Assembly: GCA_036008485.1 (NCBI GenBank)
Contig: DASYNR010000339.1
Coordinates: 1-51,643, forward strand
From: Candidatus Acidiferrales bacterium
Lineage (GTDB): Bacteria; Acidobacteriota; Terriglobia; Acidiferrales; UBA7541
Length of the DNA stretch: 51,643 nt
Direction: 5' to 3'
The notes beneath the pieces were generated by a model. That model worked only from the letters and a program-made list of their open reading frames with translations. It was not told the DNA's origin and searched no databases. Below, one piece after another: positions 23,350-47,469 of this stretch (position 1 is the first letter of the stretch; each line of letters begins with the position of its first letter). The position numbers were made by a program, and so were the translations under genes.

Positions 23350-25635
23350 TCAAGCGGATGCGGCAGTCTTCTTGGATTCCTTTTCTTCCTGGCTGTATCC
23401 GCCATACGAATATGGATAGTAGCGATATGAATAGTAATAATCGGGAGCGCTAGAGTCCACCGCGTTCAGCAGCACGCCGAGCATCCTGCATTTCACTCCG
23501 GTCAGCAAATCGCGCGTACGCATGAAAGCTTCCTTCGGCGTTTCACCGCTACGGACAACCAGCAGCACGCCATCCACAAGCACAGAAAGAATTACGGCGT
23601 CGGTAGCGGCCATAACCGGTGGGGAATCGACCACGATAAATTTATATTCGCTGCGCAATTCACTGATGCCCTGATGCATGCGCACCGAAGAAAGAAGGTC
23701 GGCGGGGTTCGGCGGGATCGGGCCCGTGGGCAATACACAAAGATTTGGAATCACAGGGTGCGGCACGGTGACCAGATCCATTGATGAAACACCCGCGAGA
23801 TACGAACTGAGCCCGGCGTATTTTCCTTCAGGCAGGCTCAAGGCACGAGTTACGCCCGGCTTGCGAAGGTCACCGTCAATCAGTAATGTGCGGTCGCCCA
23901 ACTGCGCGAGAGTGACCGCCAAATTAACCGCGGCAGTCGTTTTTCCTTCACGAGGAAGGGCGCTGGTAACCAGAATTACTTGCGGAGGATGTCCGGCCTG
24001 GGAAAGAAGAAGCGAGGTGCGCAAGGATCGGAAGGCTTCGGAGACTTGTGACTGCGGCATGGAATAGGACACTAATTCGACGTTCATGTCCTTGCCATTC
24101 TGAGAAGCGCTATTCAGCAGTTTCGACATACGGCTGCGCTTACCGCCATCAAGCGAGGCGAACGAAGGCACAACGGCGAGCGAAGGCAGCTTTGCGAGTC
24201 TCTCGATGTCGTCCGGAGTTTTCACGGTGTTGTCCATATATTCGCGGAGGAAGGCCAAGCCGAGACCGCCGACAAGTCCGACGAGAAATGCCATTAAAAT
24301 ATTGCGCGCGCGATTTGGGCGGGAAGGGCCGGAAGGGACCATCGCAGGGTCAATGATCCTGATGTTGGAAGGGTGGAGACCACCCGAAATATTGGCTTCC
24401 TTGAGTTTCTGTGAGAGTCCGTCATACAGCGTCTTGTTGGCTTCGGCATCGCGGACCAAAATATTATATTCGACGAGTTTTACAGCCATCGCATTCGCTT
24501 CGACTTTTTGTTTATCTAGCGCTTGCGTCAGCAGCGTTTCGCGCTGCACAGCGGTAAGGTATTCCTGCTGAAGGCGGCCAATGATGTTCTTCTTCTCGTC
24601 TGAAACCAATTTGTCGATCTGCTTAATCTGTTCCGACAAACTTTTCACGGAGGGAAAATTCGGCCCCAACCGGTTCAGTTCGACGATGTATTGTTGGCGG
24701 AGTTCCGATTGCTTGTTCGTCAAGGAAGAGATCTGAGCGCTTTCACGAATCGCAGGCACCGCGTCAACGTTGCCGCTATTCGCCGTCTCGTAATCCGCCT
24801 GCTTTTTAATCCGGTCGGATTGCGCCTCGGTCAGTTCTTTATCGATTTGGGTGAGCTTCTCAGTGGTGATGTTCTGTTTTTCGTCCACCGTCCAGATTTG
24901 ATTATCGCGCTCGTATGCGAGACGCTTTTCTTCAGCGGCCTGGAATTTTTCGCGTGTTTCATCAAGCTCTCCACTCAGGAAACCGGAAGCCTCCTCTGAA
25001 GAGCTGAGATGACTGTTGAAATTCTGCAACTTGAATTCATTTAAATGGGCATTCAGTACGCGGGCGGCCACTTGTGGATCCGTCGCTTCAAAAGTCACGT
25101 CCAACAATCGAGTGTTGGGCACGAGTTTGACGCTCAGGGAACCCTCAAACTCGCTTAGGATCCCGGGCCTGGTGATCGGCGCCGCGGTCGTAGAGAGCAC
25201 CGGCAGCTGTTCATGGCCTCCGGCGACACCGCCAAATGCTGGGTCATTGATCAAGTTTTCTTTCTTGATCGTCTGCATTGCCAGAGTGTCGCTCTGCAAA
25301 ACTTTCGATTGCGTCTCGATGTAATTTTGCAAATCGTCGTAGGCCGCATCGGTGTTCATGGCCTGAAAAGGAAGAACACTCGCAGTGTCCCGGTCAATTT
25401 CGATTCGCGCGGTGGCCTCGTAAATGGGCTTCATCTTAAATGTAGCGATCGAAACCAATGTCACGACGGTGACCAGGAACGTGAGAATCAGCCATTTATG
25501 CTTTCGCAAGACAAGCAGATAATCCAGAAGGTGCGGTTCGCGCGGCGCCTGCTCCCACGACACCATTGACGGCGCTGACGCCATAATTTCAATCGGGGCT
25601 TTGCGGTCGCGCGGTACAATTTTATTTTCGTCCAT
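23350..25635 (-). CDS. wzc: Wzc/GumC-type polysaccharide co-polymerase fused to a BY-kinase (tyrosine autokinase)
   Basis: N-terminal Wzz-like domain with TM helices and a long coiled-coil. Walker A PREGKTT, Walker A' LIDGDLRKP, Walker B IVVDSPPV. C-terminal Tyr cluster YYYSYRYYPYSYGGY. Start set to the ATG at 25635, preceded by GGAAGGA; the track uses TTG at 25671. Confidence 0.85.
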   Translation of the reverse strand: MDENKIVPRDRKAPIEIMASAPSMVSWEQAPREPHLLDYLLVLRKHKWLILTFLVTVVTLVSIATFKMKPIYEATARIEIDRDTASVLPFQAMNTDAAYDDLQNYIETQSKVLQSDTLAMQTIKKENLINDPAFGGVAGGHEQLPVLSTTAAPITRPGILSEFEGSLSVKLVPNTRLLDVTFEATDPQVAARVLNAHLNEFKLQNFNSHLSSSEEASGFLSGELDETREKFQAAEEKRLAYERDNQIWTVDEKQNITTEKLTQIDKELTEAQSDRIKKQADYETANSGNVDAVPAIRESAQISSLTNKQSELRQQYIVELNRLGPNFPSVKSLSEQIKQIDKLVSDEKKNIIGRLQQEYLTAVQRETLLTQALDKQKVEANAMAVKLVEYNILVRDAEANKTLYDGLSQKLKEANISGGLHPSNIRIIDPAMVPSGPSRPNRARNILMAFLVGLVGGLGLAFLREYMDNTVKTPDDIERLAKLPSLAVVPSFASLDGGKRSRMSKLLNSASQNGKDMNVELVSYSMPQSQVSEAFRSLRTSLLLSQAGHPPQVILVTSALPREGKTTAAVNLAVTLAQLGDRTLLIDGDLRKPGVTRALSLPEGKYAGLSSYLAGVSSMDLVTVPHPVIPNLCVLPTGPIPPNPADLLSSVRMHQGISELRSEYKFIVVDSPPVMAATDAVILSVLVDGVLLVVRSGETPKEAFMRTRDLLTGVKCRMLGVLLNAVDSSAPDYYYSYRYYPYSYGGYSQEEKESKKTAASA

Positions 25636-25778
25636 TATTTCCTTCCAAAAGCTTTTGCTGGGTGTCGCCAAGTTGGATTACGGGGACCGTATGAAAGTTT
25701 CGCCGCTAAGTGATGATCCATCGCACCGTCCTAACTCGCCTCATCGTCGTCATTCGCCAGAGCGTCGCGAATCCTGAG

Positions 25779-26840
25779 TTAGAGTCCCCCGACGCGCGTC
25801 AACGCGATGCCTGAAGTCAAAGCGATGATCACGTCCGTCGCTCGGTGAATCGCATGCTTGGCTGCACTGTCCGGGACAAACAGGATGTCATTCGCCTGCA
25901 TTTTCGCATCGGGGCCCTTCCGCTCAAGCAGTTTTTTCAAATCGACCGGGATTTCCTTACTGATTCCAGTGGCAGGATCCTTGCGAACGATTACCGCCTC
26001 GTTCGCTTTGGAAGTTGAAGTGACGCCTGCCGCCAGCGCCAGCGCCTTCAGCGCAGTCATCTGGTCGGCGTCATTGGAAAGGATAAATCCACCGGGATGA
26101 GTTACCGCGCCGACCACATAGAAAATTCCCGCACGCGGCACGGTCACAATATCGCCGCCTATGATCATCATGTTGTCTTTGGGCGTCGGGCTGTTCAATA
26201 AATCCCAAAGATCGACTGTAAAATTTTGCGGAGCCGCGAGTAGGTCCGGCTCTCCCGAATCAGTTTTTGCGGAAGTGTCCGCGGGGACCTTGCGAGTGAC
26301 CAGCAAAACACTTCCAGCTTCTTCGGTGATGCCACCGCACGCCGACAAAACTTCCAGGACACTCATCGGACGCAACGATTGAATCACCTGCGGCGCCTTT
26401 ACCGAGCCGATTACCGTGATTGGCTGACTACGCTGTTCTCTGAGGCTAACGGTAACTTCCGGGTTGGTGACCAATCCGCTTGCTTTCAGCAGTTCGGCGA
26501 TCTTGTCTTGAAGCTGGATCGCGCTCAGGCCTTTTGCAACGATCCGCTCCGGCAATAATGGCAGTGAAATATGTCCAGAATCATCTATACGAACGTCTCG
26601 CGATAGTTGCGGCACGTCAAAGACGTCTACGTTCACAAGGTCGCCGTTTCCCAACTTGTATTCGCTCATTAGCGGAGGGGGGACTTGTTTGGCTAGCTGA
26701 GCGATTCGACTGTTCGTTTCCGCTGTAGTTTCAACACGTTGCTGAGAAAATGAAGGTGACACCAGTATTATTGCGCCAAAAAATGTGAGCAGGCACACCC
26801 GTAACAAGACGTAAAGGTACCCAGGTCGTTTTCCACACAT
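25779..26840 (-). CDS. wza: Wza-like polysaccharide export protein (Poly_export + SLBB domains)
   Basis: Signal peptide, then YKLGNGDLVNVDVFDVPQLS (Poly_export motif) and later SLBB-like repeats (GDIVTVP, NDILFVP). Start set to the ATG at 26840, preceded by the GGGGGAG SD. Confidence 0.8.
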   Translation of the reverse strand: MCGKRPGYLYVLLRVCLLTFFGAIILVSPSFSQQRVETTAETNSRIAQLAKQVPPPLMSEYKLGNGDLVNVDVFDVPQLSRDVRIDDSGHISLPLLPERIVAKGLSAIQLQDKIAELLKASGLVTNPEVTVSLREQRSQPITVIGSVKAPQVIQSLRPMSVLEVLSACGGITEEAGSVLLVTRKVPADTSAKTDSGEPDLLAAPQNFTVDLWDLLNSPTPKDNMMIIGGDIVTVPRAGIFYVVGAVTHPGGFILSNDADQMTALKALALAAGVTSTSKANEAVIVRKDPATGISKEIPVDLKKLLERKGPDAKMQANDILFVPDSAAKHAIHRATDVIIALTSGIALTRVGGL

Positions 26841-26917
26841 GTTTAGATACTCCCCCACCGACCTCAATTATACCGGAGCAATCGCGGATAGATACAAAGA
26901 AATACCCGCCCCGCCAA

Positions 26918-28144
26918 TTAGTTAGTAGGCCCGAAGATTGGACTTGTTGAGGCCATGCCCGCCATCAAATAAAACAAGGAAGCGTTCGCGGGAATATGCA
27001 AATTAAAGTCTACAAAACTGTGTACCAGAATACCGGCGCATCCCACAAGGGTTCCAAGTTGAACAGCGCGCACCACCGGATCCTGATGCGCCGAAACATT
27101 TCTAAATCCATACACCGCCAGCAAGACAATGAACGTTAGCCAGCAAAGCGCGCCCAACACTCCCGTCTCCGCGAGCAATTCAAAATGATCATCGTGAACG
27201 TGATCAACGATTGTGGCGTCGTAAGCGGTTTCATAAGAGGGATAAACCGAAACGATCGTTCCAACGCCCGTACCAGTCCAAGGATGATCGCGGAAAATGT
27301 GGTAGGCGCCGCTCGCCATCGAAATCCGGCGGCCCTCGGTAACTTCCGGGTTGTGAATCTGCGAGAATCGCTGAATCACTTGGCCTAAGCCCAGCCACGC
27401 AACCAATCCGCCGGCCAGCAGCAACGCTACAAGAAACGTGAATACGTGTTTCTTCTCACCTCGGCGAATCCACAACAATATGACCAGCAGAATTACTTCA
27501 CAGCCAAATCCAATAATACCGCCGCGGGACGCGGAAATAAGCAAAGCACCCACGGGCATCGCGGCGAGCAGCGCCATGAGAGGCATTTGTTGGCGGCGGA
27601 CAGCTGGAACGGCCAGCATCGCCAAGCCGAGGGGAATCAGAAGCTCCATCAAACCGGCAAAATGGTTTCGATTTACGTAGGGACCGTAGGGCATTCCCCC
27701 GTACCGCATTTCACGGAACCAGTACAATTTCCCTTTGAACGTCAGATCCTGCAGCACCGCGAAGACCGCCACCGTAAATCCCAGTAAGACGATGAACCAC
27801 GCGAAATCCCGCCATTGGCGGGGCGTGCGGAATGACTGTCCCGACAGGAAAACCAGGATGATGTAGCTGGTCATGCGCAGCAGTTCCAGCTTCGTCAGGT
27901 ACGGATACAATGAAAGAGGAACGACAAATTGCAAGAGTGCAAGCAACTCGAGTCCCAAGAGCGGCCAGATTACTGGACTCCAGCGGATTTCTTCGCCACG
28001 TCCAGTGGCCATCAAGAATCCCCACCATAGGAACAGAAGCGCGGCGCCGATTTGAAGCACGGATTCGGACCACGTCTCGACAGCGCCAAAGGCTAGAACG
28101 GCGAAAGTGACCAAAACGCAGACGCCGATCCGGATGATTCTCAT
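26918..28144 (-). CDS. O-antigen ligase / Wzy-like polymerase family membrane protein
   Basis: About 10 TM helices. SASRGGIIGFG lies in the large loop region typical of the Wzy_C (PF04932) domain. ATGA overlap with the upstream gene. Confidence 0.72.
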   Translation of the reverse strand: MRIIRIGVCVLVTFAVLAFGAVETWSESVLQIGAALLFLWWGFLMATGRGEEIRWSPVIWPLLGLELLALLQFVVPLSLYPYLTKLELLRMTSYIILVFLSGQSFRTPRQWRDFAWFIVLLGFTVAVFAVLQDLTFKGKLYWFREMRYGGMPYGPYVNRNHFAGLMELLIPLGLAMLAVPAVRRQQMPLMALLAAMPVGALLISASRGGIIGFGCEVILLVILLWIRRGEKKHVFTFLVALLLAGGLVAWLGLGQVIQRFSQIHNPEVTEGRRISMASGAYHIFRDHPWTGTGVGTIVSVYPSYETAYDATIVDHVHDDHFELLAETGVLGALCWLTFIVLLAVYGFRNVSAHQDPVVRAVQLGTLVGCAGILVHSFVDFNLHIPANASLFYLMAGMASTSPIFGPTN

Positions 28145-29430
28145 GGATTGGGAAGGAAAGGTCCTGCGGGCACGATTGAAATGTCATCCACCCAGGCTGA
28201 TCCTGCCAGGTTGCTATTGAATCTGACGCTCTTGGGGCGGTAAAGCTCCAGCACAAGCAGATGCTCGTCTGGCGCGGTCGTGAAGTCCGCACTTTGTTTT
28301 TCCCACAGGTGATCGCCCGTGAAATTGTCCAGAACTAATGCAGGTAAAGTTGTTCCCGCGAATGCGATGAAAAAATGAGGGCCGCTTTCGGTTGTAATCC
28401 CCGAGGTGCGGATGTACCCCTCGAAGTGATAGCGGGTACTCGGCTGGACGGTGACGTTCTGATATACGATCTGAAGAGTGGGGTTCTGCTCGCCATCAAA
28501 AGTTAAACGTAGCGCGCGCTTTCCGGAGTGCGGATTTGCGGTATCGTAATCATAGTTTACACCTGTCGTGGGAACCAGATGCCAGTCAAGTCCGCCATTC
28601 GTGGCGTCGTATTCAAAACCGCCATTGAAAACGATTGAACTGCCGATGTTCGCTTCTTCCGGCCTTCCGCTGGCGACGAGCGCTTCACGCCAAACTTGGC
28701 GCGCCTCATCGGTGCGTTTTGCTCCGAGCAGAATTTCTTCCAATGAGAATACTGTCTTGATTGGAATGGTTTCGCCGGCTTTGACCATATATTTCCAGAC
28801 CGCGAGCGCCGGCTCAATCTGATTGTCACTGCTGAACGCTTCCAAAGCCTCCTGTTGTGACTCCACCGAGTTGGGAAGCACATCGTTCAACAGTGCGTCG
28901 GCGTCATGCGTGGCCGGCCACACACGGGAAATCGCAAGAGGGATTAAGCGCGAATCATTTTGCAGCGCAAAATGAATCTCCGCGTAGGCTTGCTTGATTT
29001 CTCCTTGACGCAGCAGAAAGCTTCCGAATCGCCAGTGCGCCTCCGCCGATGCCGGATAATCCTGAAGCGCGGTATGAAACGCTTCTCGCGCCTCCTGGAT
29101 CTGTCCGGCCGACTCATATGCCCCGGCAAGCGCCATCCAATAGTTGGCGGAACGGGGATCAATCGTCACAGCCCGGCGCAGGTAGGTAATGACCTGGCTG
29201 GCATCGGTATCATTCAAGTCCCACTGACGATTGAATCCGAGCTTGTACCAATATTCTCCGTTGCCCGACTCGAGCTGAGCGGCGCGCAACCAATTGGCAG
29301 GCTCAGTGGATTCAGCAAGATGGTCTGCATACCATGCATATCCGCTGGCCACGGACACGGTCAAAAACACAATGGAAGTGAAGGCAAAAATCATCCAGCG
29401 TAGGAAAGGCTTGTCGGAAAGTGCGGTCAT
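28141..29430 (-). CDS. Membrane-anchored TPR protein with a C-terminal carbohydrate-binding-module-like beta-sandwich
   Basis: One N-terminal TM helix. TPR-like repeats (WYKLGFN..., NYWMALAGAYESAGQIQEAREAF, AEAHWRFGSFLLRQGE). The C-terminus FNGGFEYDATNGGLDWHL ... AWVDDISIVP resembles CBM_4_9-type domains. Confidence 0.62.
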   Translation of the reverse strand: MTALSDKPFLRWMIFAFTSIVFLTVSVASGYAWYADHLAESTEPANWLRAAQLESGNGEYWYKLGFNRQWDLNDTDASQVITYLRRAVTIDPRSANYWMALAGAYESAGQIQEAREAFHTALQDYPASAEAHWRFGSFLLRQGEIKQAYAEIHFALQNDSRLIPLAISRVWPATHDADALLNDVLPNSVESQQEALEAFSSDNQIEPALAVWKYMVKAGETIPIKTVFSLEEILLGAKRTDEARQVWREALVASGRPEEANIGSSIVFNGGFEYDATNGGLDWHLVPTTGVNYDYDTANPHSGKRALRLTFDGEQNPTLQIVYQNVTVQPSTRYHFEGYIRTSGITTESGPHFFIAFAGTTLPALVLDNFTGDHLWEKQSADFTTAPDEHLLVLELYRPKSVRFNSNLAGSAWVDDISIVPAGPFLPNP

Positions 29431-29474: not shown

Positions 29475-30677
29475 CTAACGCCGCTCATCAGATTTAGGCC
29501 GCCGAATACCGTACCGCTTCATGAGCAGAACCGGCCGCAGCCATCGGTGGATTCCGGACATGCCGTCGGGCAACGGCGCGTCCGCGCGATCGTGTTCGGT
29601 CGGCGAGGTGGCCAGCCTCATCGCAAATCGCAAGCCAGCCGAAAAGCTATCACGGCTCGCCACGCGAAACCGGAATCGCGCAAAGATTGGTATCTGTGCA
29701 TGCGCGCTCATTGAGAATCGATCGCAAATTCCGTCGCCGAGCTTTTTCGCGGCCGGATCGCGCGAAATTTTTTTGAGTACGTCGACTGGCAGCGGAGCTT
29801 CCAACACTTGGTAAGCCAAATATAAAGCAAGATTCAGCATGCGGCTTACGCCCATTTCATGCGCGCGAGAAAACGCTTCCGCCCAACGTATCGCGGCCGC
29901 CGCTTGCGACAATTCGGAAATATCCACGATCCACATCAGGCGTTCCCAGAAATGCTTCGCGCCGTGCACGGACAGCAGAATGAGCGTGTCCTCCGGCGAA
30001 AAGGAAAGAGTTTCGCCGCCGGCGAGCGAAACACTGGTCAGATGTTTCTCGATCGCGTCAAAATCCAACTTGCGCGGAAAATATCGAAGCGTCACTTCCG
30101 TCTGCATTTCAACGATTACGTTTCCGGCGGGCCGCACGAACTGATATTCGCTGTGGGTGGGATGCGTACCTTCCTCCGGCGCCATTGTTCCGAAAACTGC
30201 GTTGTACCCATTGGCTTTCAGCAGAGCCGCCGCTTTCGGCAAATCCCTCTGCCGAATCGCGAAATCCAGGTCTGTAAACTGCCGCATCGCCAAATTTCCG
30301 TATGCTTGCGCAGCGAGCAAAGGCCCTTTATAAGGAACGGCGATCATTCCTTCCGCGCGGAAAATGTTTGCGAGCCGGAACATTTCCGCGGTCATGTAAA
30401 GATTCCTTTGCGCGCGCTCTTCGAGTAGGCGGCGCATCTGCGTCTGCCAGTCTGTCGGGATTAGTTCCGCAAAATGTGCGAGAAGCTGGTTGTATACGAG
30501 GGGCGCCACGCCGTGCTCTCTCGCGCCCGTGTCGAGCGCCTGCCAATCAAAGTCGCTGCCGATGAGCGCGCGGATGCGAGCGGCAAGTTCCGCGGACATG
30601 CGCGTGCGCGCGCAAGCCTGCAGAATCTCTCGCTCTGAGTTGGTCGTGGAGGCTAATGATTTGGACGATTGAGACAC
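29475..30677 (-). CDS. Uncharacterised nucleotidyltransferase family protein (NTP_transf_5 / PF14907-like)
   Basis: KGPLLAAQAYGNLAMRQFTDLDFAI (K-G ... R-x-x-x-D-x-D core). The overall helical N-terminus and about 400-aa size are typical of this family. Confidence 0.68.
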   Translation of the reverse strand: MSQSSKSLASTTNSEREILQACARTRMSAELAARIRALIGSDFDWQALDTGAREHGVAPLVYNQLLAHFAELIPTDWQTQMRRLLEERAQRNLYMTAEMFRLANIFRAEGMIAVPYKGPLLAAQAYGNLAMRQFTDLDFAIRQRDLPKAAALLKANGYNAVFGTMAPEEGTHPTHSEYQFVRPAGNVIVEMQTEVTLRYFPRKLDFDAIEKHLTSVSLAGGETLSFSPEDTLILLSVHGAKHFWERLMWIVDISELSQAAAAIRWAEAFSRAHEMGVSRMLNLALYLAYQVLEAPLPVDVLKKISRDPAAKKLGDGICDRFSMSAHAQIPIFARFRFRVASRDSFSAGLRFAMRLATSPTEHDRADAPLPDGMSGIHRWLRPVLLMKRYGIRRPKSDERR

Positions 30678-30854
30678 GGCGGCTTACACTTTGCCGCAAT
30701 TGCCGCACAGCACACAAGTCCGGCTCGATTCAAAATCAGGATTTCGACTGCGTGCGTTGAAACGCGCAAGAAAGCCTCGCAATCGCGAAACCTTACTTGC
30801 GCGTTTCGATTATGGCGATACTAAGAGCTTGTTAGTCCCTGCGGAGCGGACCGT

Positions 30855-31127
30855 TTACGACTTTGTTGCAAGAAGACGCTTGCGGCCCAGAATTCCAAGA
30901 GTGCCGAGAACAACAAGGCCTGCGCCCAATTGAATCAAGGAACTTGGTTCCGGTACGGACGTCGGTTTGTCGCGATCCCAGCAACTGGTGTTGCTTCGCT
31001 CATTTCTGCACGGATCCACCTGCGCGTTTGCCGGTGTGCCGCAAACGAGAAAACCCATGCCGAGAACTAAAGCTGGAAGCGCTGCGACACCAACAATTGA
31101 ACGAATTGTCGTACTTCCCAACTTCAT
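30855..31127 (-). CDS. Mini PEP-CTERM sorting-domain protein (90 aa): Sec signal, about 23-aa two-Cys segment, PEP-CTERM anchor
   Basis: Signal peptide ...GTPANA|QV. C-terminal VPEPSSLIQLGAGLVVLGTLGILGRKR is a PEP motif, a hydrophobic helix and a basic cluster. A strong SD sits upstream (aaGGGGAGGtaaaacATG). Confidence 0.8.
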   Translation of the reverse strand: MKLGSTTIRSIVGVAALPALVLGMGFLVCGTPANAQVDPCRNERSNTSCWDRDKPTSVPEPSSLIQLGAGLVVLGTLGILGRKRLLATKS

Positions 31128-31213
31128 GTTTTACCTCCCCTTTTTCGGTCCCCTCAGCAATCGGAACTGGAAAACAAGGCAGTCGAGCAACTGTCCTGTA
31201 AGCCATCCTGTCG

Positions 31214-31228
31214 ATTGCAATTTGCAAT
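31214..31228. promoter_or_regulatory. Perfect 15-bp palindrome ATTGCAA-T-TTGCAAT about 90 nt upstream of the mini PEP-CTERM gene (candidate operator)
   Basis: Read directly at 31214-31228. It lies in the 306-nt non-coding region upstream of the ATG at 31127. Function is inferred only. Confidence 0.3.
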
Positions 31229-31300
31229 TCTGTGGCCGAAACGATCAACAAAGAAATAGAAGCAGCGATAGTGAAGTTTTCGATTGTTTACAGTGACTTA

Positions 31301-31317
31301 TGCCGGTACCGGACCAA
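31301..31317 (-). promoter_or_regulatory. Weak candidate sigma-54 -24/-12 element (TTGGTCCGGTACCGGCA; GG-N10-GC spacing), overlapping the 10-bp palindrome CCGGTACCGG
   Basis: The minus-strand reading has GG and GC separated by 10 nt. It matches the YTGGCACG-N4-TTGCW consensus only partially. Confidence 0.18.
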
Positions 31318-31433
31318 AATGGGATTCGATTTCCGAGACACGGAGGGCAGAAGTTTTCCTGTTTTTACCCCATTCGCAAGAAAAACAGCGCATAGGCGTG
31401 GCATTCCATAATTGTCAAGCGCTCCGAAGGGAA

Positions 31434-32606
31434 TCACACTTCACGGCTGTACTTTCGTGACAATGCGCCGACGAACTTCATGGCATCGTGCCATCTGATA
31501 AATTTTTCGGGATGTTCAGCCGTGAGTTTTCGGGCAATTTCTTCGAGTGTCGTGTGGCCGTCCATCATTTCCAATATTTTACGGTCCAGAATCCCTTCGC
31601 TGGAGAGCTGCGGAACGTAGGTGGCGGATTGCTTGCGAAGTTGCGGGAGCGAGAACACGGACCCGGTCAACGTTGACTGCGCAAATTTCTCGCGAAAGTT
31701 GCCGTCTCCGCCGGATGACTTCACTTGTGTCGCCCAACGCCAAGCATATTCACTCCCGATAAGTTTCGCTTCGAGTTGAACGCGCACTATGTCGTCCTGC
31801 TTTAATTGCAACGGCTGAATCCATGGAAAGAACACTGAGCCGTAGATTGTCTTCGTCTTTCCGGGAGCGTTGGAGAAGGACACGCCATCAGCGAGATCCG
31901 AATCGAACCAGACAATGAATCCATGCCCCTCGGCATCCCGCTCGACATTCCACGAAAGTTCGCCGCTCACGTCTGGATCTTCAATCGTCGAATAATTCAG
32001 GGTTCCCCAAAGTGCAGGAGCCGACAAAAGTTGATCGCGTTCCGGATGCGTCTGTTGAATTCCATTTACAGCCAATTTACGGCCTGACGCCAGCGGCATG
32101 TCCAAAATGTTGTGTTCCCAAGTATCCACAAGTCGATTGTAGAGAGTTGGCATCTCTACGACTGCCGCCCATAGCGTTTCCTTTCGCGGAATCAGAACTC
32201 CGCCAGGGCGGAGAAAACGCTCACGGGCGTCCACGATCGAGGGAATGTGGCGGCCATACAATGGCAAGGCACCGTGGAGATCCGATATGACGACATCAAC
32301 CTGCGAGGGAAGCGTTACATTCGTGGAGAAATCCTCGATGAATTCAATCCGATTTGCACAAACAGTCCCGTCCGGGCAAGAGTAATGGGCCGCATTCTCT
32401 CGCGCGATTTGAATAATCTCCTCCATTTCAAGTGCAAAAACACCGCTGGCGCCCAGTTGACAGGCGAGAATCGCGAAAATTCCCGGGCCGGTTCCGATAT
32501 CGAGAACAATCGATCCCGGCTTCATAGTTCGGCGAAGGGCCTCCGCATACGAACCGGTTCGCACGCGATCGAAAATAAGATCACCGTAGTCCAAAACGCT
32601 GGGCAT
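31434..32606 (-). CDS. Class I SAM-dependent methyltransferase (PRMT-like) with a C-terminal PqqD/RRE-like winged-helix segment
   Basis: VLDIGTGPGIFAILACQLGASGVFALE (motif I/post-I) plus a PRMT-like beta-barrel-length middle region. C-terminus ILEMMDGHTTLEEIARKLTAEHPEKFIRWHDAMKFVGALSRKY matches the PqqD-family pattern. Start set to the ATG at 32606, preceded by GAGGTG; the track uses TTG at 32621. Confidence 0.7.
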   Translation of the reverse strand: MPSVLDYGDLIFDRVRTGSYAEALRRTMKPGSIVLDIGTGPGIFAILACQLGASGVFALEMEEIIQIARENAAHYSCPDGTVCANRIEFIEDFSTNVTLPSQVDVVISDLHGALPLYGRHIPSIVDARERFLRPGGVLIPRKETLWAAVVEMPTLYNRLVDTWEHNILDMPLASGRKLAVNGIQQTHPERDQLLSAPALWGTLNYSTIEDPDVSGELSWNVERDAEGHGFIVWFDSDLADGVSFSNAPGKTKTIYGSVFFPWIQPLQLKQDDIVRVQLEAKLIGSEYAWRWATQVKSSGGDGNFREKFAQSTLTGSVFSLPQLRKQSATYVPQLSSEGILDRKILEMMDGHTTLEEIARKLTAEHPEKFIRWHDAMKFVGALSRKYSREV

Positions 32607-32778
32607 TCCGCGGCACCTCAACTGAGCAAAAAGGCTAACACGGTTTGAATGATTTCGAGAGCAACGCTGGCGCGCGCGTTAAGAAATGAACTACTTCGTT
32701 GGTTAGAGAAGTTGTATCCTGTTGCCACGCGGAAACAGATTCGAGCGGTTTGTTCTTGAAATGCAAAGAGGCTGCTGA

Positions 32779-34632
32779 GTGCATTCATTTCTGATTCCCC
32801 TCCTCAAGGGACTGATCGCTGTCTTTGCAATATCCGGCACAGGCAAATTGCTTCTAGGGTCTTTCGGTATTCGGAATTTGCCGTGGTACTGGAGAATTGC
32901 GTTCGTGCTGCTGGCGGGTCAGGCTGCCGTGTTCGTCCTTGTTGAAGCTGTATTGCTTTCAGGCACCGGCTCAGCGGCCACACTTCGATTCCTCACCTGG
33001 TTGCTTTTCGGCGTTGCAGTATTTGGTCACGTGTTTTTTCCCCGCGCCGGTGCCGCGAATACGATCGGCGAAATGATCCGCGCCGATAAGCTCATTACAG
33101 CGATTTTATTGCTGGCAGTGCTCACGAATCTTGTTGCCGCGCTCGCGCCTTCCACAAAAATTGACGAGCTTTACTATCACATGTTGACGCCGAAGCGAAT
33201 CGTCGAGGATGGGGGCCTGCGTCTCTATCTGCTTCCGATTGAATCGGCAATCATGCCGCAGATGCACTATCAAATTTCGCTCAGCCTCGCTCATGCGTCT
33301 GGCGCCCCTGACGCTGGAAACGTTCTAAGCTGGGGATATTCCGTGGCACTCTCGCTTTTCATGATGGGTTTCTTGATGGATGCGACGAGAAATCGCCACC
33401 TGTCAGTACTTTGTGGAGCGCTTTGCGGTGTTGGAATCTATGCTACGGTTTGGCATACAACCGGCGCTGCGCATGCGCTCGGTGACCTGGCGACGGTGGT
33501 TGCGTTCGCCGGCGTTCTGCGCCCGGCGAGCTTGTTGGACGCGCTGGGCCATTACCGATACACGTTTTTGTTGACCGCCGTAACAGCACTTGCTGCTTCG
33601 ACTAAACTTTCCCTCGTGCCGCTGTCTCTCGTCGCAAGCGGGTTGATTGTTCTCCAAGTACTTCGTGCGAAAACGCCGAGCACAAAAATATTCAACGTGA
33701 TGGGTCTGGCGCTTCTTCCCTGGATTGTTATTCATCTGCCGCTGATGATCTGGACCTACGCCGCTTCTGGATCCTTCTGGGGGCCCGTCCTTGCAAACGT
33801 GTTCGGCCGCAGCGCGTTCCCGCCAGACATTCTGCGATACATCGCAGATCTTCAAGAGTTCAGCCCGGCTAGTTTTGTTCCCATGGCGCGGTATGCTGTG
33901 GCGGGATTCACACCGGTATTTTTTATTTCCATTCTGTGGATATTGTGGACAGCACTGCGCGGATGCAAGACCAGCCGGCTCGTCGGCGCGTTGCTTTTCT
34001 TACAGGGCGGAATCGTCGCGTGGAAATTTCACTTTGACTTCCGATTTTTGGGCGGACTGGAATTTGTCGCAGTTCTCGCGGCGGCGTTGACTCTCGCAAG
34101 TCCGGCTGAGGCGGACGATCACTCCAGATTTTCTGATGCGTGGACGCGTCTTGGTGCGAAGCTAGTGAGTTGGCGCACATGGATCCTTTTGTTCGCAGCC
34201 ATTCCGTGGCTGGCATTTCAGCTTTACTATGCGCGGCCGTTCGCTGAAGTGGTGAGCGGACTTACACCGCGCAGTGAATTTATGAAACGCTATGTAGCGC
34301 TCAGCAGCGATTTTGAAATTTTGGATGGAATGCTGCCACGCGATGCCGTCATATATATTCCTGACGCGCGCTGGCCGAATTTCTATGCGCCAAGGCCTGT
34401 GGTATTGACTCCGCTGGATCTGCGCGGACGCGCGTCAATATTCCGGCTGGCGATATCCTCGGAACCAAACGCCGAACAGGTTGACGCCATTTCTCCGCTG
34501 AAGTGTGACGAGATGATCTATCGAAACGAAGCGGCAGTAGTCGAAACTTATCGAACACCGGGGGAAGCACCGATTATTGGCGCAATAAAGGTTCAGGCCT
34601 GCCAACTGCAACCATCCGGTGGGGAGCGATAG
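32779..34632 (+). CDS. Large polytopic membrane protein, GT-C-like glycosyltransferase candidate
   Basis: 617 aa with more than 12 TM helices. The first extracytoplasmic loop carries KIDELYYHM, a DE-x-Y-type acidic motif as in ArnT/PMT-type GT-C enzymes. A C-terminal soluble domain of about 150 aa follows. GTG start preceded by AAGAGG. Confidence 0.5.
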   Translation: MHSFLIPLLKGLIAVFAISGTGKLLLGSFGIRNLPWYWRIAFVLLAGQAAVFVLVEAVLLSGTGSAATLRFLTWLLFGVAVFGHVFFPRAGAANTIGEMIRADKLITAILLLAVLTNLVAALAPSTKIDELYYHMLTPKRIVEDGGLRLYLLPIESAIMPQMHYQISLSLAHASGAPDAGNVLSWGYSVALSLFMMGFLMDATRNRHLSVLCGALCGVGIYATVWHTTGAAHALGDLATVVAFAGVLRPASLLDALGHYRYTFLLTAVTALAASTKLSLVPLSLVASGLIVLQVLRAKTPSTKIFNVMGLALLPWIVIHLPLMIWTYAASGSFWGPVLANVFGRSAFPPDILRYIADLQEFSPASFVPMARYAVAGFTPVFFISILWILWTALRGCKTSRLVGALLFLQGGIVAWKFHFDFRFLGGLEFVAVLAAALTLASPAEADDHSRFSDAWTRLGAKLVSWRTWILLFAAIPWLAFQLYYARPFAEVVSGLTPRSEFMKRYVALSSDFEILDGMLPRDAVIYIPDARWPNFYAPRPVVLTPLDLRGRASIFRLAISSEPNAEQVDAISPLKCDEMIYRNEAAVVETYRTPGEAPIIGAIKVQACQLQPSGGER

Positions 34633-34773: not shown

Positions 34774-34804
34774 CGATCGCAGAAACTTGATACCAAGAGT
34801 TCCG

Positions 34805-35764
34805 ATGGCTTACTTGACTAACTCCGCAGAAACTTGTGCCGCAGTTCCGATCGAACGTGTGGAATGCATGCCACCCGAAATATTCCACCAGCGGTACCTT
34901 ACCGGCAGCGGGAAGCCTGTGGTAGTGACTGATGCGCTGAGCACGTGGCCTGCCCGGTCGAAATGGAATTTCGATTTCTTCAAATCGCGTTACGGTCCAG
35001 AACAAGTTGTCCCTGCGATTTGGCCGGGGGACAAATACCTGAAAGTAATTAAATTGAGTGACTACATCGATTCGCTCGACAACCCGCATCGGCCGACGCC
35101 GGGTTTCTGGATTGATTTGGCGACGAAACTTCCATGCGAGGCGCCGTCGCAACCGCCGGGAATGCCTTTGTACCTTACTGGCTGGAAGGCATTTAATCTG
35201 CACCCCGAATTACTGGAAGACGTCGAACTAAGCCCGAAGTTTGTCGACGATTGGATCCCCCTGCTCCCTGCGCCCTTTCGTAAAGTATTGGAAGAAACCA
35301 CGAAGTATCTTTCGGGAGGATTTCTGATTGGTCCCGCAGGATCGATAGCGGCGCTTCACTTCGACATTCTGCACACTCATGCATATTTGGCGCAAATTGC
35401 CGGCAGAAAGAAGTGCGTTCTTTTTTCCCCGGAGGATTCGGAATATCTCTACGGCGGGAAAGTAGATCCAACTCGGCCAGATTTTGAAAGATTTCCACTT
35501 ATGCGCCGCACCACCCCGTACGAGTGCATTTTGGAGCCGGGCGAACTTTTGTTCATGCCATCGGACTGGTGGCATCACGTGGTGGCGCTCGAGAAATCCA
35601 TCACGGTGGGCTACAATTTTTTCAATCGCGTAAATTTCGCGGCTTACATTCAGGCGATTCTTCAGGATCTGCCAACCGTACTGAACGGACTGGAAAAGTT
35701 TCCGGACGAGAAAGCGTTGCTTGGAATAAATTGGACGAGTAAAGGATTTGATTTTCCCGTCTGA
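34805..35764 (+). CDS. JmjC/cupin_8-family 2-oxoglutarate/Fe(II)-dependent oxygenase (FIH/JMJD-like protein hydroxylase type)
   Basis: FHQRYLTGSGKPVVVTDALSTWPARSKWNFDFFKSRYG (cupin_8 N-terminal signature). Facial triad candidates HFD (ALHFDILH) and WWHHVVAL. Start is ATG at 34805; the track uses TTG at 34787. Confidence 0.8.
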   Translation: MAYLTNSAETCAAVPIERVECMPPEIFHQRYLTGSGKPVVVTDALSTWPARSKWNFDFFKSRYGPEQVVPAIWPGDKYLKVIKLSDYIDSLDNPHRPTPGFWIDLATKLPCEAPSQPPGMPLYLTGWKAFNLHPELLEDVELSPKFVDDWIPLLPAPFRKVLEETTKYLSGGFLIGPAGSIAALHFDILHTHAYLAQIAGRKKCVLFSPEDSEYLYGGKVDPTRPDFERFPLMRRTTPYECILEPGELLFMPSDWWHHVVALEKSITVGYNFFNRVNFAAYIQAILQDLPTVLNGLEKFPDEKALLGINWTSKGFDFPV

Positions 35765-35798
35765 CAAAACACAACCTTCCGAATTGCAGCTAAACTCA

Positions 35799-37580
35799 AT
35801 GAGCCGCATGACTTTGCCTATCCACGAGATTTACAATCAGCAAATTGCAGAAGCGGCGCGACGGCAACGGGATTCCTGGGCCGAATCGCTAACGCAATCG
35901 CAGGAATCCCTTCAAAAAGATCCTCAGTCCGCGGACGCATACATTGAAGTAGCACGGTGCTACGAGAAATTGCGCCGACACAGTGAAGTGCGCGCGATTC
36001 TCGATCAAGGTTTTTCTCACGTACCTGCCGAACGTTCCTATCGGCTGCATCTATGGCATATCCATTGGCTGGACGAATGCAATCGCACGCGCGAAGCAAT
36101 TGCCGCCGCACGGCAAGCGAGCAAACTATTTCCTGAAAAATTTGCGCTGAAAATGATCGAGGCGCTTACCTTACCGGTCATCTATGATTCGACGGAAGAA
36201 ATCGGCGAATACCGCGAGAGATTCACGCACGGCCTGCACAGATTGAGTCTGGAGCTTTCTCTGAAAACTCCCGCGGCACGGGAAGACGCTTGCGCTGCAA
36301 TTGCACGGCACTCCAACTTTCGTTTGGGATATCAAGCGCAGAATGACCGCGATTTACAAGCGGAATACGGGCGACTGCACCATCAGATCATGGCGGCGAA
36401 TTATCCTGAATGGGCGAAGCCAATTTCCATGCCGGAAATTATTCCCAGCGAAAAGTTGCGCGTAGGCTACGTGTCTTCGCGCTTTCGCAATTTGAGCGCG
36501 GCGAAGTATTTTTCAGGCTGGATCCGTGAGCACAACAGAGACGACTTCTTCGTCTACACATATCACATCGGAGCTAAAACGGATTCGATCACCGAGGAAA
36601 TCCGCAAATCCAGTGACATTTTTCGGCATATTCCAAATTCTCTCGAAGAAATGTGCCGGGCCACACTCGACGACAAGCTTCATATCGTCGTATTTCTAGA
36701 TGCCTGCCTCGATCCGACCACCACGCAACTCGCTTCACTGCGTCTGGCTCCTGTCCAATGCGCTGCGTGGGATCAACCAATCACTACGGGACTGCCAACC
36801 ATCGATTATTTTATCTCCAGCGCCGTCGCCGAGCCTGATTACGCTCGAGAACATTACTCTGAGGAGCTAGTGCCTTTGCCAGGCATCGGCGTGAATTATC
36901 TGAAGCCGGTAATTCCCACCGCTCTCCTGACTAAGACTCGCCGCGATTTTCAACTTCGAGATGACGCAGTCCTTTATCTATGCATTCAATATGCGTATAA
37001 ATATCTGCCGGACCAAGATCATCTTCTCGTGCAAATTGCCAAACAGGTTCCGAACGCACAGTTTGTTTTTCTAACGGAAAATGATTTCATCGCGGCGGAT
37101 CTTCAGCGAAGACTGGACCGAGCATTTTCAGCAGCGAAACTAGACGCCCATGACTATTGCGTGATTCTGCCTGCTCTCGAACGCTTCAGCTACTGGAACC
37201 TCAGCCTTCTGGGCGACGTGTTCCTTGATGCGATCGGATGGTCGGGCGGTGTTTCAACGTTTGAAGCGATCGCGTGCCGAATTCCAATCGTGACGTTGCC
37301 GGGGGAATTTATGCGCGGACGGCAATCCTACGCGATACTCACGGAACTCGGCGTAACGGACACCGTCGCGAATAACAAAGCGGAGTACGTCCAGATCGCA
37401 GTTCGGCTCGGCACGGACCGTCTGTGGCGCGACGACATCGTCCAGCGCATGGCCAATAACTATTCCTCAGTTTATTCGGACACGCGATGTGTCCCAGCGC
37501 TTGAAGATTTTTTCAAGCGCACTGTAGAACTGCGCTTAGAGACGCAGCGGAATTCCGCGGTTAGCCGCGCCCGTAAATAA
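35799..37580 (+). CDS. TPR-repeat protein with a C-terminal GT41 (O-GlcNAc-transferase/SPINDLY-like) glycosyltransferase domain
   Basis: N-terminal TPR-like helices. LRVGYVSSRFRNLSAAKYFSGWIREHNRDDFFVYTYH and the C-terminal DAIGWSGGVSTFEAIACRIPIVTLPGEFMRGRQSYAIL are typical of bacterial 'SPINDLY family' OGT-like proteins. Start uncertain (TTG 35748, ATG 35799 or ATG 35808). Confidence 0.72.
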   Translation: MSRMTLPIHEIYNQQIAEAARRQRDSWAESLTQSQESLQKDPQSADAYIEVARCYEKLRRHSEVRAILDQGFSHVPAERSYRLHLWHIHWLDECNRTREAIAAARQASKLFPEKFALKMIEALTLPVIYDSTEEIGEYRERFTHGLHRLSLELSLKTPAAREDACAAIARHSNFRLGYQAQNDRDLQAEYGRLHHQIMAANYPEWAKPISMPEIIPSEKLRVGYVSSRFRNLSAAKYFSGWIREHNRDDFFVYTYHIGAKTDSITEEIRKSSDIFRHIPNSLEEMCRATLDDKLHIVVFLDACLDPTTTQLASLRLAPVQCAAWDQPITTGLPTIDYFISSAVAEPDYAREHYSEELVPLPGIGVNYLKPVIPTALLTKTRRDFQLRDDAVLYLCIQYAYKYLPDQDHLLVQIAKQVPNAQFVFLTENDFIAADLQRRLDRAFSAAKLDAHDYCVILPALERFSYWNLSLLGDVFLDAIGWSGGVSTFEAIACRIPIVTLPGEFMRGRQSYAILTELGVTDTVANNKAEYVQIAVRLGTDRLWRDDIVQRMANNYSSVYSDTRCVPALEDFFKRTVELRLETQRNSAVSRARK

Positions 37581-39961: not shown

Positions 39962-40167
39962 ATCCCGCCTGGGGAATCCCTCTCTTTTCAGACAAGGGCC
40001 GTGCGCTCCATTTTAGTATTTATTAGTGGGTGCGTCCGGTGTGGCACGCGTCAGTCTTTTTGCCGATGCGATTGGTGGAGGCGTTCGTGATTTCCGCCAA
40101 ATTTCCATAAACTTGCACTTCGGGCTTACTGTATGGTTTTCTTGTCGACTTGTTGTTTGCCGCGTTC

Positions 40168-42344: not shown

Positions 42345-42347
42345 CGC

Positions 42348-43837: not shown

Positions 43838-43894
43838 GCGCGTTGCTGAATAAACTGGGGATTTAAGGCCTAATTTTCCCGGAAAGTTCGTGAA

Positions 43895-47213: not shown

Positions 47214-47217
47214 AGTT

Positions 47218-47445: not shown

Positions 47446-47469
47446 ATCGTTGTTCCTGGCTGCTGCAAA

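Follow-up and report, generated by a model that had tools for sequence, protein, structure and literature searches.

A candidate minimal PEP-CTERM exosortase substrate encoded in an exopolysaccharide locus of uncultured Terriglobia

Introduction

Since its prediction in 2006, the PEP-CTERM/exosortase system has, to our knowledge, remained largely uncharacterised in its chemistry, including the cut site and the attachment target. Dedicated exosortase–substrate gene pairs, in which the exosortase is encoded beside its own PEP-CTERM-type target, were reportedly described by Haft and co-workers in 2012. PEP-CTERM proteins (TIGR02595/PF07589) carry a signal peptide and a C-terminal VPEP motif followed by a transmembrane helix and a basic cluster, and their passenger is typically a couple of hundred residues long. 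Their genes were found to be single-gene units preceded by large intergenic regions and by a sigma54 -24/-12 motif, and the -24(GG)/-12(GC) regulation was described for Proteobacteria (Haft et al. 2006, PMC1569441). In the same study, the median number of PEP-CTERM paralogues per genome was eight, and Cys was very rare in PEP-CTERM proteins generally (0.4%). The flocculation-associated PepA protein of the Betaproteobacteria Zoogloea and Aquincola (NF033554) is encoded in an exopolysaccharide (EPS) locus, just 5′ of a TPR (prsT-like) gene; in Aquincola, pepA has an RpoN promoter, and a stem-loop and the prsT gene lie downstream (PMC9850573). Small ORFs also occur among kinase and nucleotidyltransferase tailoring genes, where they encode lasso/RiPP precursors, such as those of paeninodin and pseudomycoidin (PMC8498205).

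Here we describe a small gene (hereafter the mini-gene) of an uncultured soil acidobacterium, located in a 51.6-kb contig that was analysed as a whole (the window). A preliminary description had presented its product as a PEP-CTERM protein with a mature part of about 23 residues, possibly modified by enzymes encoded nearby. The product has the signal peptide and the C-terminal VPEP, helix and basic cluster of PEP-CTERM proteins, and the gene resembles PEP-CTERM genes in its single-gene layout, large intergenic region, -24(GG)/-12(GC) element and EPS locus (PMC1569441). The passenger, however, is only about 22 residues long. As in the pepA loci, the mini-gene lies 5′ of a TPR gene in an EPS locus, with an RpoN-type -24/-12 element and a stem-loop before the downstream gene (PMC9850573), but a PF14907 nucleotidyltransferase (NTase) gene separates it from the TPR gene. 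The two proteins also differ: the mini-protein (90 aa) scores 14.4 bits against the NF033554 cut-off of 80, and only residues 56–77 align, to the tail of the 261-position model. The host, an acidobacterium, differs from the betaproteobacterial hosts of PepA, and no PrsK or PrsR was seen in the window.

Results

The mini-gene is a 90-aa ORF at 30855..31127 on the minus strand, with an ATG start and a stop codon at 30855..30857. A Shine-Dalgarno sequence, GGGGAGG (31134..31140, minus strand), lies 6 nt 5′ of the ATG; it had been called strong in the preliminary description, and GGAGG is kept at equal spacing in all lineages. Codons 1–35 (MKLGSTTIRSIVGVAALPALVLGMGFLVCGTPANA; 31023..31127, minus strand) encode a Sec-type signal peptide with a basic n-region (K2, R9), a hydrophobic core, P32 and A33-x-A35 followed by Q, and the predicted signal peptidase I site is A33-N-A35|Q36. 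P18, A33 and A35 are invariant in a 27-sequence alignment; one further locus, L013, has T33, giving an [A/T]-x-A pattern, and the sister families have [A/S/T]-x-A|Q. Judged from sequence features and conservation, the earlier proposal of a Sec signal is borne out. A lipoprotein reading was rejected: since F26-L-V-C29 has Val at -1 and Cys29 is replaced by S, Y or T in P0003, P0012, P0015 and P0019, the end of the signal is not a lipobox.

The predicted mature peptide, QVDPCRNERSNTSCWDRDKPTS (codons 36–57, Q36–S57; 30957..31022, minus strand), has 22 residues, close to the length first proposed. It includes P39-C40-R41 and C49, and contains two Cys, four K/R and four D/E (mean hydropathy -1.85). 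C40 and C49 probably form a disulfide loop. Codons 58–90 (30858..30956, minus strand) encode the PEP-CTERM sorting domain, which consists of VPEPSS, the helix LIQLGAGLVVLGTLGILG, RKR and LLATKS. V58-P-E-P61, the hydrophobic stretch L64–G81 and R82-K-R84 are near-invariant within the family, and the protein ends at residue 90. The mini-protein scored 18.0 bits on TIGR02595 (cut-off 16; E = 0.0037), a narrow pass with a 2-bit margin, so that the canonical anchor named in the preliminary description was confirmed by the search proposed there. The model was matched at E ≤ 0.05 by 24 of the 27 family members, and the remaining model matches of family members were all to tails of PEP-CTERM families. 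The tail of the mini-gene product is the single one detected across the 51.6-kb window. These features support the view that the mini-protein is a genuine, translatable-looking PEP-CTERM protein whose extracytoplasmic portion has the size of a peptide.

Homologues formed 26 clusters (60–96% identity), every one in uncultured Terriglobia and annotated everywhere as "hypothetical protein". The carriers of the gene are uncultured MAG or metagenome lineages. The ratio dN/dS was 0.33 for the signal, 0.35 for the mature part and 0.12 for the tail, which is the most constrained part of the protein, and in 10 of 10 lineages only the sense frame was open. An antisense 112-aa ORF (30863..31201) was rejected, as it contained stop codons in seven of the nine other lineages examined. 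Judged by these comparisons, the mini-gene is real and under purifying selection. It is kept within its clade, absent outside it, and deleted by secondary loss in the close lineage L026; the expectation that homologues would occupy syntenic loci held within the clade apart from L026, and the loss indicates that the gene is dispensable. This loss, together with the uniform "hypothetical protein" annotation, might suggest a spurious or decaying ORF without a product. That explanation is effectively refuted by the comparative data, namely the purifying selection, the retention of the Shine-Dalgarno sequence, 5′UTR and promoter-like element, and a sense frame that, unlike the others, stays open in every lineage.

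Within the mature part, the fixed positions of the family alignment are limited to P39-C40-R41, with Arg41 near-invariant, and C49. Exactly two Cys were found in the mature part of all 27 members, at a spacing of 6–10 and mostly 8, which confirms the two-Cys peptide proposed earlier and is unlike PEP-CTERM proteins generally, in which Cys is rare. The PCR...C motif is under purifying selection, which shows that the sequence of the cargo is of consequence here. Position 38 is D, N, E or Q across the family. The N-T-S sequon noted in the preliminary description is present in the window's protein (N46-T-S), but an N-x-S/T sequon occurs in only 5 of the 27 members, and N-glycosylation at this site was rejected for that reason. 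The mini-protein further differs from PEP-CTERM proteins in lacking a conserved Ser/Thr/Asn richness and in having a tail and a signal more conserved than the passenger. Hydrophobic ends that are more conserved than the "cargo" are unusual for passenger delivery.

The intergenic region upstream of the mini-gene is 306 nt long and contains a sigma54-type -24/-12 promoter-like element, GGCCACAGAATTGCA (GG-N10-GC; 31223..31237, minus strand), about 110 nt 5′ of the ATG. Across 10 lineages its GG and (T)TGC never change, whereas the intervening bases vary, and the element is also kept 5′ of sister mini-genes in L100, L103 and L104. If transcription begins right after the -12 element, the conserved 5′UTR (31128..31213, minus strand) would be about 86 nt long; 21 of its columns are invariant among 13 sequences, sister families included. 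The motif GAGGGGACCGAAAAA (31141..31155, minus strand) has a single occurrence in each locus, the window included, and always stands directly 5′ of a mini-gene. A structure of the 5′UTR that sequesters the Shine-Dalgarno sequence was rejected, because the consensus fold gave modest structure and left that sequence free. Between the mini-gene and the NTase gene lies a 21-bp hairpin without a U-tract (30759..30807, minus strand; z = -2.8 for the MFE fold). It was found in 10 of 10 lineages, with 21 consensus pairs of which four show compensatory double changes, and has decayed in L026, the lineage in which the mini-gene is deleted. The hairpin may be a terminator/attenuator or an mRNA-stabilising stem-loop. 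A scan of 30400..31700 against Rfam gave no match, hairpin included, and scans for a consensus sigma70 promoter and an intrinsic terminator found none on the minus strand. The mini-gene is probably a self-contained, sigma54-dependent transcription unit.

Downstream of the mini-gene, on the same strand, lies the PF14907 NTase gene (29475..30677, minus strand; E = 4.5e-56), followed by EPS assembly/export genes (23350..29430, minus strand) whose order is kept in homologous loci. These encode a TPR+CBM4_9 protein with weak similarity to PrsT (28141..29430), Wzy_C (26918..28144), a Wza-like protein (25779..26867) and a Wzc-like tyrosine kinase (23350..25671), all on the minus strand. This EPS gene context is kept across the mini-gene lineages, and the mini-gene is the sole PEP-CTERM gene of the Wzx/Wzy-type locus, upstream of the PrsT-like TPR, Wzy, Wza and Wzc genes. 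Upstream, on the same strand, is a gene for a PrmA/PRMT_C-like methyltransferase (31434..32621, minus strand), and beyond it a divergent gene (32779..34632, plus strand) for a 617-aa polytopic membrane protein that shows the same clade restriction as the mini-gene. The latter has about 12 transmembrane segments and a C-terminal domain of about 135 aa, and sequence searches of Pfam, NCBIfam and PDB gave no match. A DELYYH loop and this domain layout give the impression of a GT-C-like protein. Its single-sequence AlphaFold model had a mean pLDDT of 41 and was unusable. The Cupin_8/JmjC (34787..35764), GT41 (35748..37580) and 2OG-Fe(II) oxygenase (39332..39961) genes were likewise located, so that the neighbours were as the preliminary description had listed them.

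Because these neighbours include candidate peptide-modifying enzymes, the mini-protein could be a RiPP-like precursor, i.e. a short peptide rich in Cys, Asn, Asp, Arg, Pro, Ser and Thr, tailored by the methyltransferase, the NTase, the JmjC/P4H hydroxylases and GT41, and then exported and anchored. The mini-gene does lie exactly between the methyltransferase and NTase genes in the window and in L014, L015, L016 and L027, Arg41 is near-invariant and the methyltransferase PRMT-like, and GT41 weakly matches a cytoplasmic protein N-glucosyltransferase. For the tail of the methyltransferase, which had been called RRE-like, the PqqD/winged-helix match was weak and stayed below threshold (E = 0.008; 16.9 vs 23.4 bits). 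The arrangement seen in the window is not general, however: the methyltransferase is missing in five mini-gene lineages (L010, L012, L013, L018 and L019, about half), and L014 carries a GT8 gene in place of JmjC and GT41, both of which L015 lacks. The NTase is present in every mini-gene locus, but with 925 hits its family extends far beyond that of the mini-protein. In loci whose NTase is at most 69% identical to that of the window, the methyltransferase gene lies 59–302 nt 5′ of the NTase gene and the mini-gene is absent; still other lineages encode both enzymes as a fusion. One of these two arrangements, lacking a mini-gene, is found in most related loci. The mini-gene thus represents an insertion between the two that is specific to its clade. 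A PEP-CTERM ORF was detected in 2 of 71 more distant NTase loci, both belonging to the window's mini family; given this count and the five lineages without the methyltransferase, the mini-gene does not co-occur obligately with tailoring enzymes.

The RiPP-type enzymes instead typed as a lasso system with a precursor of its own. The mini-gene has lasso-like surroundings, comprising PqqD, B2, an Asn-synthase-type cyclase and an HprK-like kinase, which form a lasso-type cluster, in addition to the PF14907 NTase and the methyltransferase. A search with the leader motif YxxPxLx3Gx5Tx matched a conserved 52-aa ORF (40023..40181) and its relatives, but not the mini-protein; the 52-aa ORF scored just below the cut-offs of the NCBIfam lasso-leader models, and no lasso model matched the mini-protein. 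The 52-aa ORF is likely to be the substrate of the lasso-type enzymes. In contrast to lasso precursors, the mini-protein combines a Sec signal with a PEP-CTERM anchor; it lacks the leader motif as well as a conserved acidic ring-forming residue, the acidic position being variable, and a lasso-core reading was rejected on these grounds. In addition, the enzymes appear to be cytoplasmic, in contrast to a peptide with a Sec signal. Considering the unconserved sequon, the inconstant partners and the separate lasso precursor, the data do not support the earlier suggestion that the peptide is modified by the hydroxylases, glycosyltransferases, methyltransferase and NTase encoded nearby. We regard a RiPP-like precursor as quite improbable, and the mini-protein is most likely not a substrate of the neighbouring lasso-type tailoring enzymes.

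The window contains no exosortase (EpsH) gene, as had been stated earlier: family scans of large ORFs and tblastn with the bona fide exosortase of L103 found none. Neither a motif screen of 70 polytopic ORFs nor this tblastn detected one in the window or in loci other than L103, and no exosortase was found within about ±10 kb in the homologous mini-gene loci. A Pfam search revealed a second exosortase, in L104. In these two independent loci, L103 and L104, sister mini-genes of a CGYGTGHSC subfamily lie 116–153 nt 5′ of an Exosortase_EpsH gene. They share with the window gene the tail signature QLG.GL...RKRL.A.KS, the promoter-like element and the 5′UTR motif. The L103 exosortase has the CSG and N..R motifs and scored 107.4 against 105.55 for TIGR02602; it fits the generic models TIGR02602 and TIGR04178 only, and no named Xrt subtype. 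Since sister mini-genes with the same 5′UTR sit directly upstream of an exosortase gene, comparative gene order supports an exosortase link for the mini-gene. The sister genes resemble dedicated exosortase–substrate pairs, but the window's mini-gene is not itself adjacent to an exosortase.

PEP-CTERM proteins are in general much larger, as previously noted, but dozens of other mini-PEP-CTERM families of 60–120 aa exist. They are stand-alone genes in unrelated contexts. In each of L100 and L101, two mini PEP-CTERM genes lie within 5 kb. The common layout is a signal peptide, a stub of about 10–35 residues, usually with a two-Cys loop, and a PEP-CTERM tail; many of the families have two Cys, and some relatives have only 2–3 cargo residues, so that cargo length grades continuously across the class, from about 35 down to 2–3 residues. 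Searching the literature for work on exosortases or PEP-CTERM proteins of Acidobacteria yielded nothing specific.

This continuum raises the possibility that the functional product is the sorting signal with a short stub and that no passenger is delivered, the protein serving as a priming, regulatory or decoy exosortase substrate, or as a peptide tag attached to polysaccharide. The sister genes directly beside exosortase, and a tail and regulatory cassette more conserved than the cargo, fit such a role. Adjacency to the sorting enzyme is, however, equally expected for an ordinary dedicated substrate, and the selection on PCR...C speaks for a cargo that matters; we consider a cargo-independent role unlikely. 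Alternatively, the protein might remain unprocessed as a small membrane protein, with one or both hydrophobic segments staying in the membrane and the Cys loop forming a short periplasmic turn, and serve the EPS polymerase/export machinery, or the co-occurring 617-aa membrane protein, as an accessory or regulatory subunit. The higher conservation of the hydrophobic ends than of the loop, a position amid Wzy, Wza, Wzc and a clade-restricted polytopic membrane protein, and the existence of relatives with almost no loop are consistent with this. Against it, the first helix ends in an invariant A-x-A, which points to cleavage by signal peptidase; matches of the tail are confined to the PEP-CTERM model and PEP-CTERM families; the sister genes adjoin exosortase rather than EPS genes; and other mini families stand alone. 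An unprocessed protein is unlikely.

Discussion

As a whole, the data favour, with a probability of roughly 60%, a minimal, sigma54-regulated exosortase substrate that is associated with the EPS matrix and encoded in a layout like that of pepA-prsT, its processing and function being inferred. In this scheme, the 90-aa precursor would be exported by Sec and cleaved by signal peptidase I after A33-N-A35. The C-terminal helix and RKR would keep the remaining product of about 55 aa in the inner membrane, with only a strongly charged peptide of about 22 residues exposed in the periplasm, where Cys40 and Cys49 would form a loop. An exosortase encoded elsewhere in the genome would then recognise VPEP, the helix and the basic cluster and remove the anchor, after which the small peptide may be freed or joined to an acceptor in the envelope or EPS. 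This last step is drawn purely by analogy.

Given that the same layout is found for pepA-prsT in floc-forming Betaproteobacteria, the mini-protein is by analogy most likely an EPS-matrix-associated factor that would help to retain or organise the polymer. Surface or EPS attachment, part of what the preliminary description had proposed, is still the best reading, without the tailoring by neighbours that it had added. The link of the mini-gene to EPS rests on its position, which is that of a clade-specific insertion beside lasso-type genes.

The case is a caution against inferring RiPP chemistry from gene adjacency alone. Soil Acidobacteriota are major EPS producers, and they carry many mini-substrates that are now annotated as "hypothetical protein". 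A substrate with an exported part of about 20 residues would be an ideal mass-spectrometry handle on the exosortase cut site and attachment, and the exosortase-adjacent sister genes would likewise be an ideal handle on exosortase chemistry. More speculatively, and with rather low probability, mini-PEP-CTERM proteins may constitute a widespread, undescribed class of Acidobacteriota in which the short peptide, rather than being a passenger, is covalently transferred by exosortase onto an exopolysaccharide or envelope acceptor, or else has a priming or regulatory effect on the exosortase. With such a transfer, the polymer would be peptide-tagged and could be cross-linked by disulfides. Were this class real, the mini-gene/exosortase pair would provide a natural minimal system for the cleavage site and acceptor chemistry of exosortases.

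The mini-gene and its family

The mini-gene (30855..31127, minus strand) starts with ATG, is preceded at 6 nt by GGGGAGG and encodes a 90-amino acid (aa) product, in agreement with the preliminary description. The protein has three parts, MKLGSTTIRSIVGVAALPALVLGMGFLVCGTPANA, QVDPCRNERSNTSCWDRDKPTS and VPEPSSLIQLGAGLVVLGTLGILGRKRLLATKS, and the 22 residues that separate the predicted signal-peptidase site from VPEP are very hydrophilic (4 basic, 4 acidic and 2 Cys). TIGR02595, the PEP-CTERM model, scored 18.0 bits, above the curated cut-off of 16 by a small margin, which bears out the class first proposed. The remaining weak NCBIfam matches were C-terminal tails of PEP-CTERM families, except for two non-significant ones, with the sorting-signal models for MYXO-CTERM and LPXTG (E 1.9 and 3). 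The HMM, the motif architecture and the signal peptide all place the mini-protein in the PEP-CTERM domain class. It was rejected as a PepA homolog, as a lasso precursor and as a lipoprotein.

A search of 5.8 billion proteins yielded 26 clusters of homologs (89–92 aa, 60–96% identity), always annotated as “hypothetical protein”; TIGR02595 matched 24 of the 27 family members. In the family alignment P18, A33, A35 and P39 were invariant, and C40, R41, C49 and nearly the entire tail were near-invariant. The PEP-CTERM tail had the lowest dN/dS (Nei-Gojobori, 8 lineages), 0.12, against 0.33 in the signal and 0.35 in the mature part. Across 10 lineages the sense frame alone was open in every one, so that an overlapping 112-aa antisense ORF was not conserved and was rejected as a gene. 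On these sequence data we regard the mini-gene as real, and a spurious ORF as a practically negligible alternative. All members fall within a single clade of acidobacteria, whose hosts are uncultured, and the only species-level reference genome carrying the gene was a Terriglobia MAG.

Conserved elements flanking the mini-gene

A GG-N10-GC element, GGCCACAGAATTGCA, is located 5′ of the mini-gene (31223..31237); its GG and TGC were invariant in 10 of 10 lineages, and the bases between them varied. A strongly conserved leader of ~86 nt follows on its 3′ side, with a motif, GAGGGGACCGAAAAA, found solely in front of mini-genes of this family and its sisters. On the 3′ side of the gene, a 21-bp hairpin (30759..30807) was present in all lineages, with compensatory changes at four pairs. 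[quoted passage not shown] 2006, PMC1569441). In Aquincola, pepA is part of an EPS locus, with an RpoN promoter, a stem-loop and, downstream, the TPR gene prsT (PMC9850573). We infer that the GG-N10-GC element acts as a promoter and the hairpin as a terminator. A sigma54 activator (bEBP) to serve the predicted −24/−12 promoter was not found within the window. The edge of the EPS locus (3867..9583) carries regulatory genes: an ECF-type sigma factor (5564..6181) is accompanied by a zf-HC2 anti-sigma-like membrane protein (3867..5567), and there is also a two-component pair of the LytTR type (7656..8807 and 8807..9583).

The surrounding EPS locus and an embedded lasso-type cluster

The neighboring genes belong to the families initially assigned to them. 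The mini-gene is flanked by the PF14907 nucleotidyltransferase (NTase; 29475..30677, minus strand) and a PrmA/PRMT_C-like methyltransferase (31434..32621, minus strand). Farther away, on the plus strand, are a Cupin_8/JmjC gene (34787..35764) and a GT41 + TPR gene (35748..37580); beyond them lie genes for a NodU-like carbamoyltransferase (37561..39255) and a 2OG-Fe(II) oxygenase (39332..39961). The segment 34787..39961 is a variable accessory module that differs among otherwise syntenic loci; in homologous locus L014 a GT8 and a faint ScmC-like gene stand in place of JmjC and GT41, and L015 has neither of the latter. Taken as a whole, the window is an EPS locus of the Wzx/Wzy type; its genes encode GT4/GT2 glycosyltransferases, FkbM methyltransferases, an acyltransferase, a flippase, an SDR, a Wzc-like kinase, Wza, Wzy and a TPR+CBM4_9 protein that weakly resembles PrsT. 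Three long ORFs had no family match (47203..48270, plus strand; 50213..50749 and 50743..51558, minus strand); the Ser/Arg/Ala-rich translation of the last resembles an out-of-frame artefact.

The order in homologous loci was divergent polytopic membrane protein, (methyltransferase), mini-gene, NTase, TPR/CBM, (Wzy), Wza and Wzc. The membrane protein (32779..34632, plus strand; 617 aa) has ~12 TM segments, a 58-residue loop with DELYYH and a ~135-aa C-terminal domain, and had no match in Pfam, NCBIfam or PDB. It is limited to the mini-gene clade and transcribed divergently from the mini-gene; our guess is a GT-C-like glycosyltransferase. The mini-protein might be an unprocessed small subunit of this protein or of the EPS machinery, as its hydrophobic ends are more conserved than its loop, but we consider this rather unlikely.

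A lasso-type RiPP cluster lies inside the EPS locus (40023..44185, all minus strand). It contains an Asn-synthase cyclase (40168..42027; top match, the lasso cyclase model), two PqqD genes (42027..42344 and 43895..44185; top matches, the lasso chaperone models), a B2 protein (42348..42770; NF033537, 91.9 bits against a cut-off of 33) and an HprK-like kinase (42767..43837); no ABC exporter was seen. Immediately after the cyclase gene is a conserved 52-aa ORF (40023..40181), a candidate precursor with leader YSKPEVQVYGNLAEITN, consistent with YxxPxLx3Gx5Tx, and core ASTNRIGKKTDACHTGRTH. Its relatives, found in >20 loci with and without the mini-gene, share an Asp at core positions 8–11 and a (K/R)-T-(H/G) C-terminus. 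The ring-closing acidic position of lasso rings is usually 7–9, and the relatives thus fall partly outside this range.

The mini-gene is separable from the neighboring enzymes

The preliminary description had raised the possibility that the mini-protein is a RiPP-type substrate of its neighbors. A profile of distant NTases retrieved 80 metagenomic loci (34 to 88% identity to the window's NTase); among the 71 having upstream sequence, two carried a PEP-CTERM ORF, both of the mini-gene family. When loci were sorted by NTase identity, the mini-gene was present in all at ≥72%, with the sole exception of L026, and in none at ≤69%. In L026 (2200-2640; NTase 82% identical), a close lineage, the ORF, leader and promoter were cleanly deleted and a mutated, decaying hairpin remnant persists; the mini-gene is therefore dispensable, and conservation of the hairpin is tied to it. 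In many loci at ≤69%, the same methyltransferase lies 59-302 nt 5′ of the NTase, and in other lineages the two are fused (proteins P0127, P0131, P0135, P0136, P0139, P0141, P0143 and P0146). Since they are adjacent or fused without the mini-gene, the latter is, on this comparison, a clade-specific insertion between two enzymes already cooperating. The NTase-TPR/CBM pairing persists to about 37% NTase identity.

Fusion and adjacency of the PF14907 NTase and the PrmA/PRMT-like methyltransferase argue for joint action, probably on the lasso-type peptide, with whose enzyme set they belong. Lasso peptides tailored by kinases and nucleotidyltransferases are already known (PMC8498205). The presumed tailoring partners vary across syntenic loci: the methyltransferase is missing from mini-gene loci L010, L012, L013, L018 and L019, and the JmjC and GT41 genes are replaced by GT8 in L014 and gone from L015. 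The N-x-S/T sequon, once viewed as a modification target, occurs in 5 of 27 members, and the “RRE tail” of the methyltransferase proved to be a sub-threshold PqqD/winged-helix match. Given these inconstant partners, the enzymes without a mini-gene, the lasso-type set, the sequon count and the sub-threshold tail, a RiPP-type substrate is unlikely.

Sister mini-genes and the exosortase

As noted at the outset, the window contains no exosortase gene. When 1.84 billion representatives were searched exhaustively with a profile, 53 matched, most of them 60-120 aa with a signal peptide, a short hydrophilic segment and PEP-CTERM. For 36 of the 53, parsed crudely, the segment was roughly 10-55 residues, with exactly two Cys in about 60%. 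NCBI's annotation of one such mini family reads [quoted passage not shown]. The closest out-group, the CGYGTGHSC subfamily, shares with the window gene the tail QLG.GL...RKRL.A.KS, a sigma54-type element and the leader motif. In two independent loci, L103 (10001-11318) and L104 (10001-11332), a 91-aa gene of this subfamily lies 116-153 nt 5′ of an Exosortase_EpsH gene (300-308 aa), a conserved pair in the order class II aldolase, mini-gene, exosortase; in L103 microcompartment shell genes also flank the pair. The L103 exosortase has the CSG and N..R motifs and passed TIGR02602 (107.4 against 105.55 bits) and TIGR04178; it matched no named Xrt subtype, the closest, XrtC/XrtA, being below their cut-offs.

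Genes of further mini families stand alone, in contexts unrelated to this one. Loci L100 and L101 also carry PEP-CTERM ORFs of 58-59 aa (L100, 14773-14952; L101, 11377-11553) with predicted mature parts of 2-3 residues (AYA/IQA/VPEP and AYA/SA/VPEP; bars, predicted boundaries), and a sigma54-like TGGCCACAAAGCTGCA lies 57 nt upstream of the former. They are essentially exosortase signals without cargo. A role of the mini-protein itself that does not depend on cargo, as the exosortase's primer, regulator or peptide tag, seems quite unlikely.

Proposed processing and significance

The sequences show directly the domain architecture, the family, the selection, the synteny, the conservation of regulatory elements and, for the sister genes, adjacency to an exosortase. 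The reading that we favor, with a probability of roughly 0.6, is an exosortase-processed mini PEP-CTERM substrate tied to EPS. By analogy with the family, the mini-protein would be exported by Sec and cut by signal peptidase I after A-x-A, a Cys40-Cys49 disulfide would form in the periplasm, and the PEP-CTERM helix would anchor the protein transiently until an exosortase encoded elsewhere removed the anchor, so that a charged loop of ~20 residues would be released or moved to the envelope or EPS matrix. The gene heads a TPR-Wzy-Wza-Wzc block, a position suggestive of a PepA-like function, the holding or organizing of polymer. In contrast to described PEP-CTERM proteins, in which Cys is normally rare, the mini-protein has a vestigial passenger with a conserved Cys pair, and conservation is lower in this passenger than in the sorting signal and the regulatory cassette. 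We found no description of mini PEP-CTERM substrates in the searchable literature. Their main value lies less in exotic chemistry than in offering exosortase biochemistry a natural minimal substrate, with the enzyme adjacent in sister loci.
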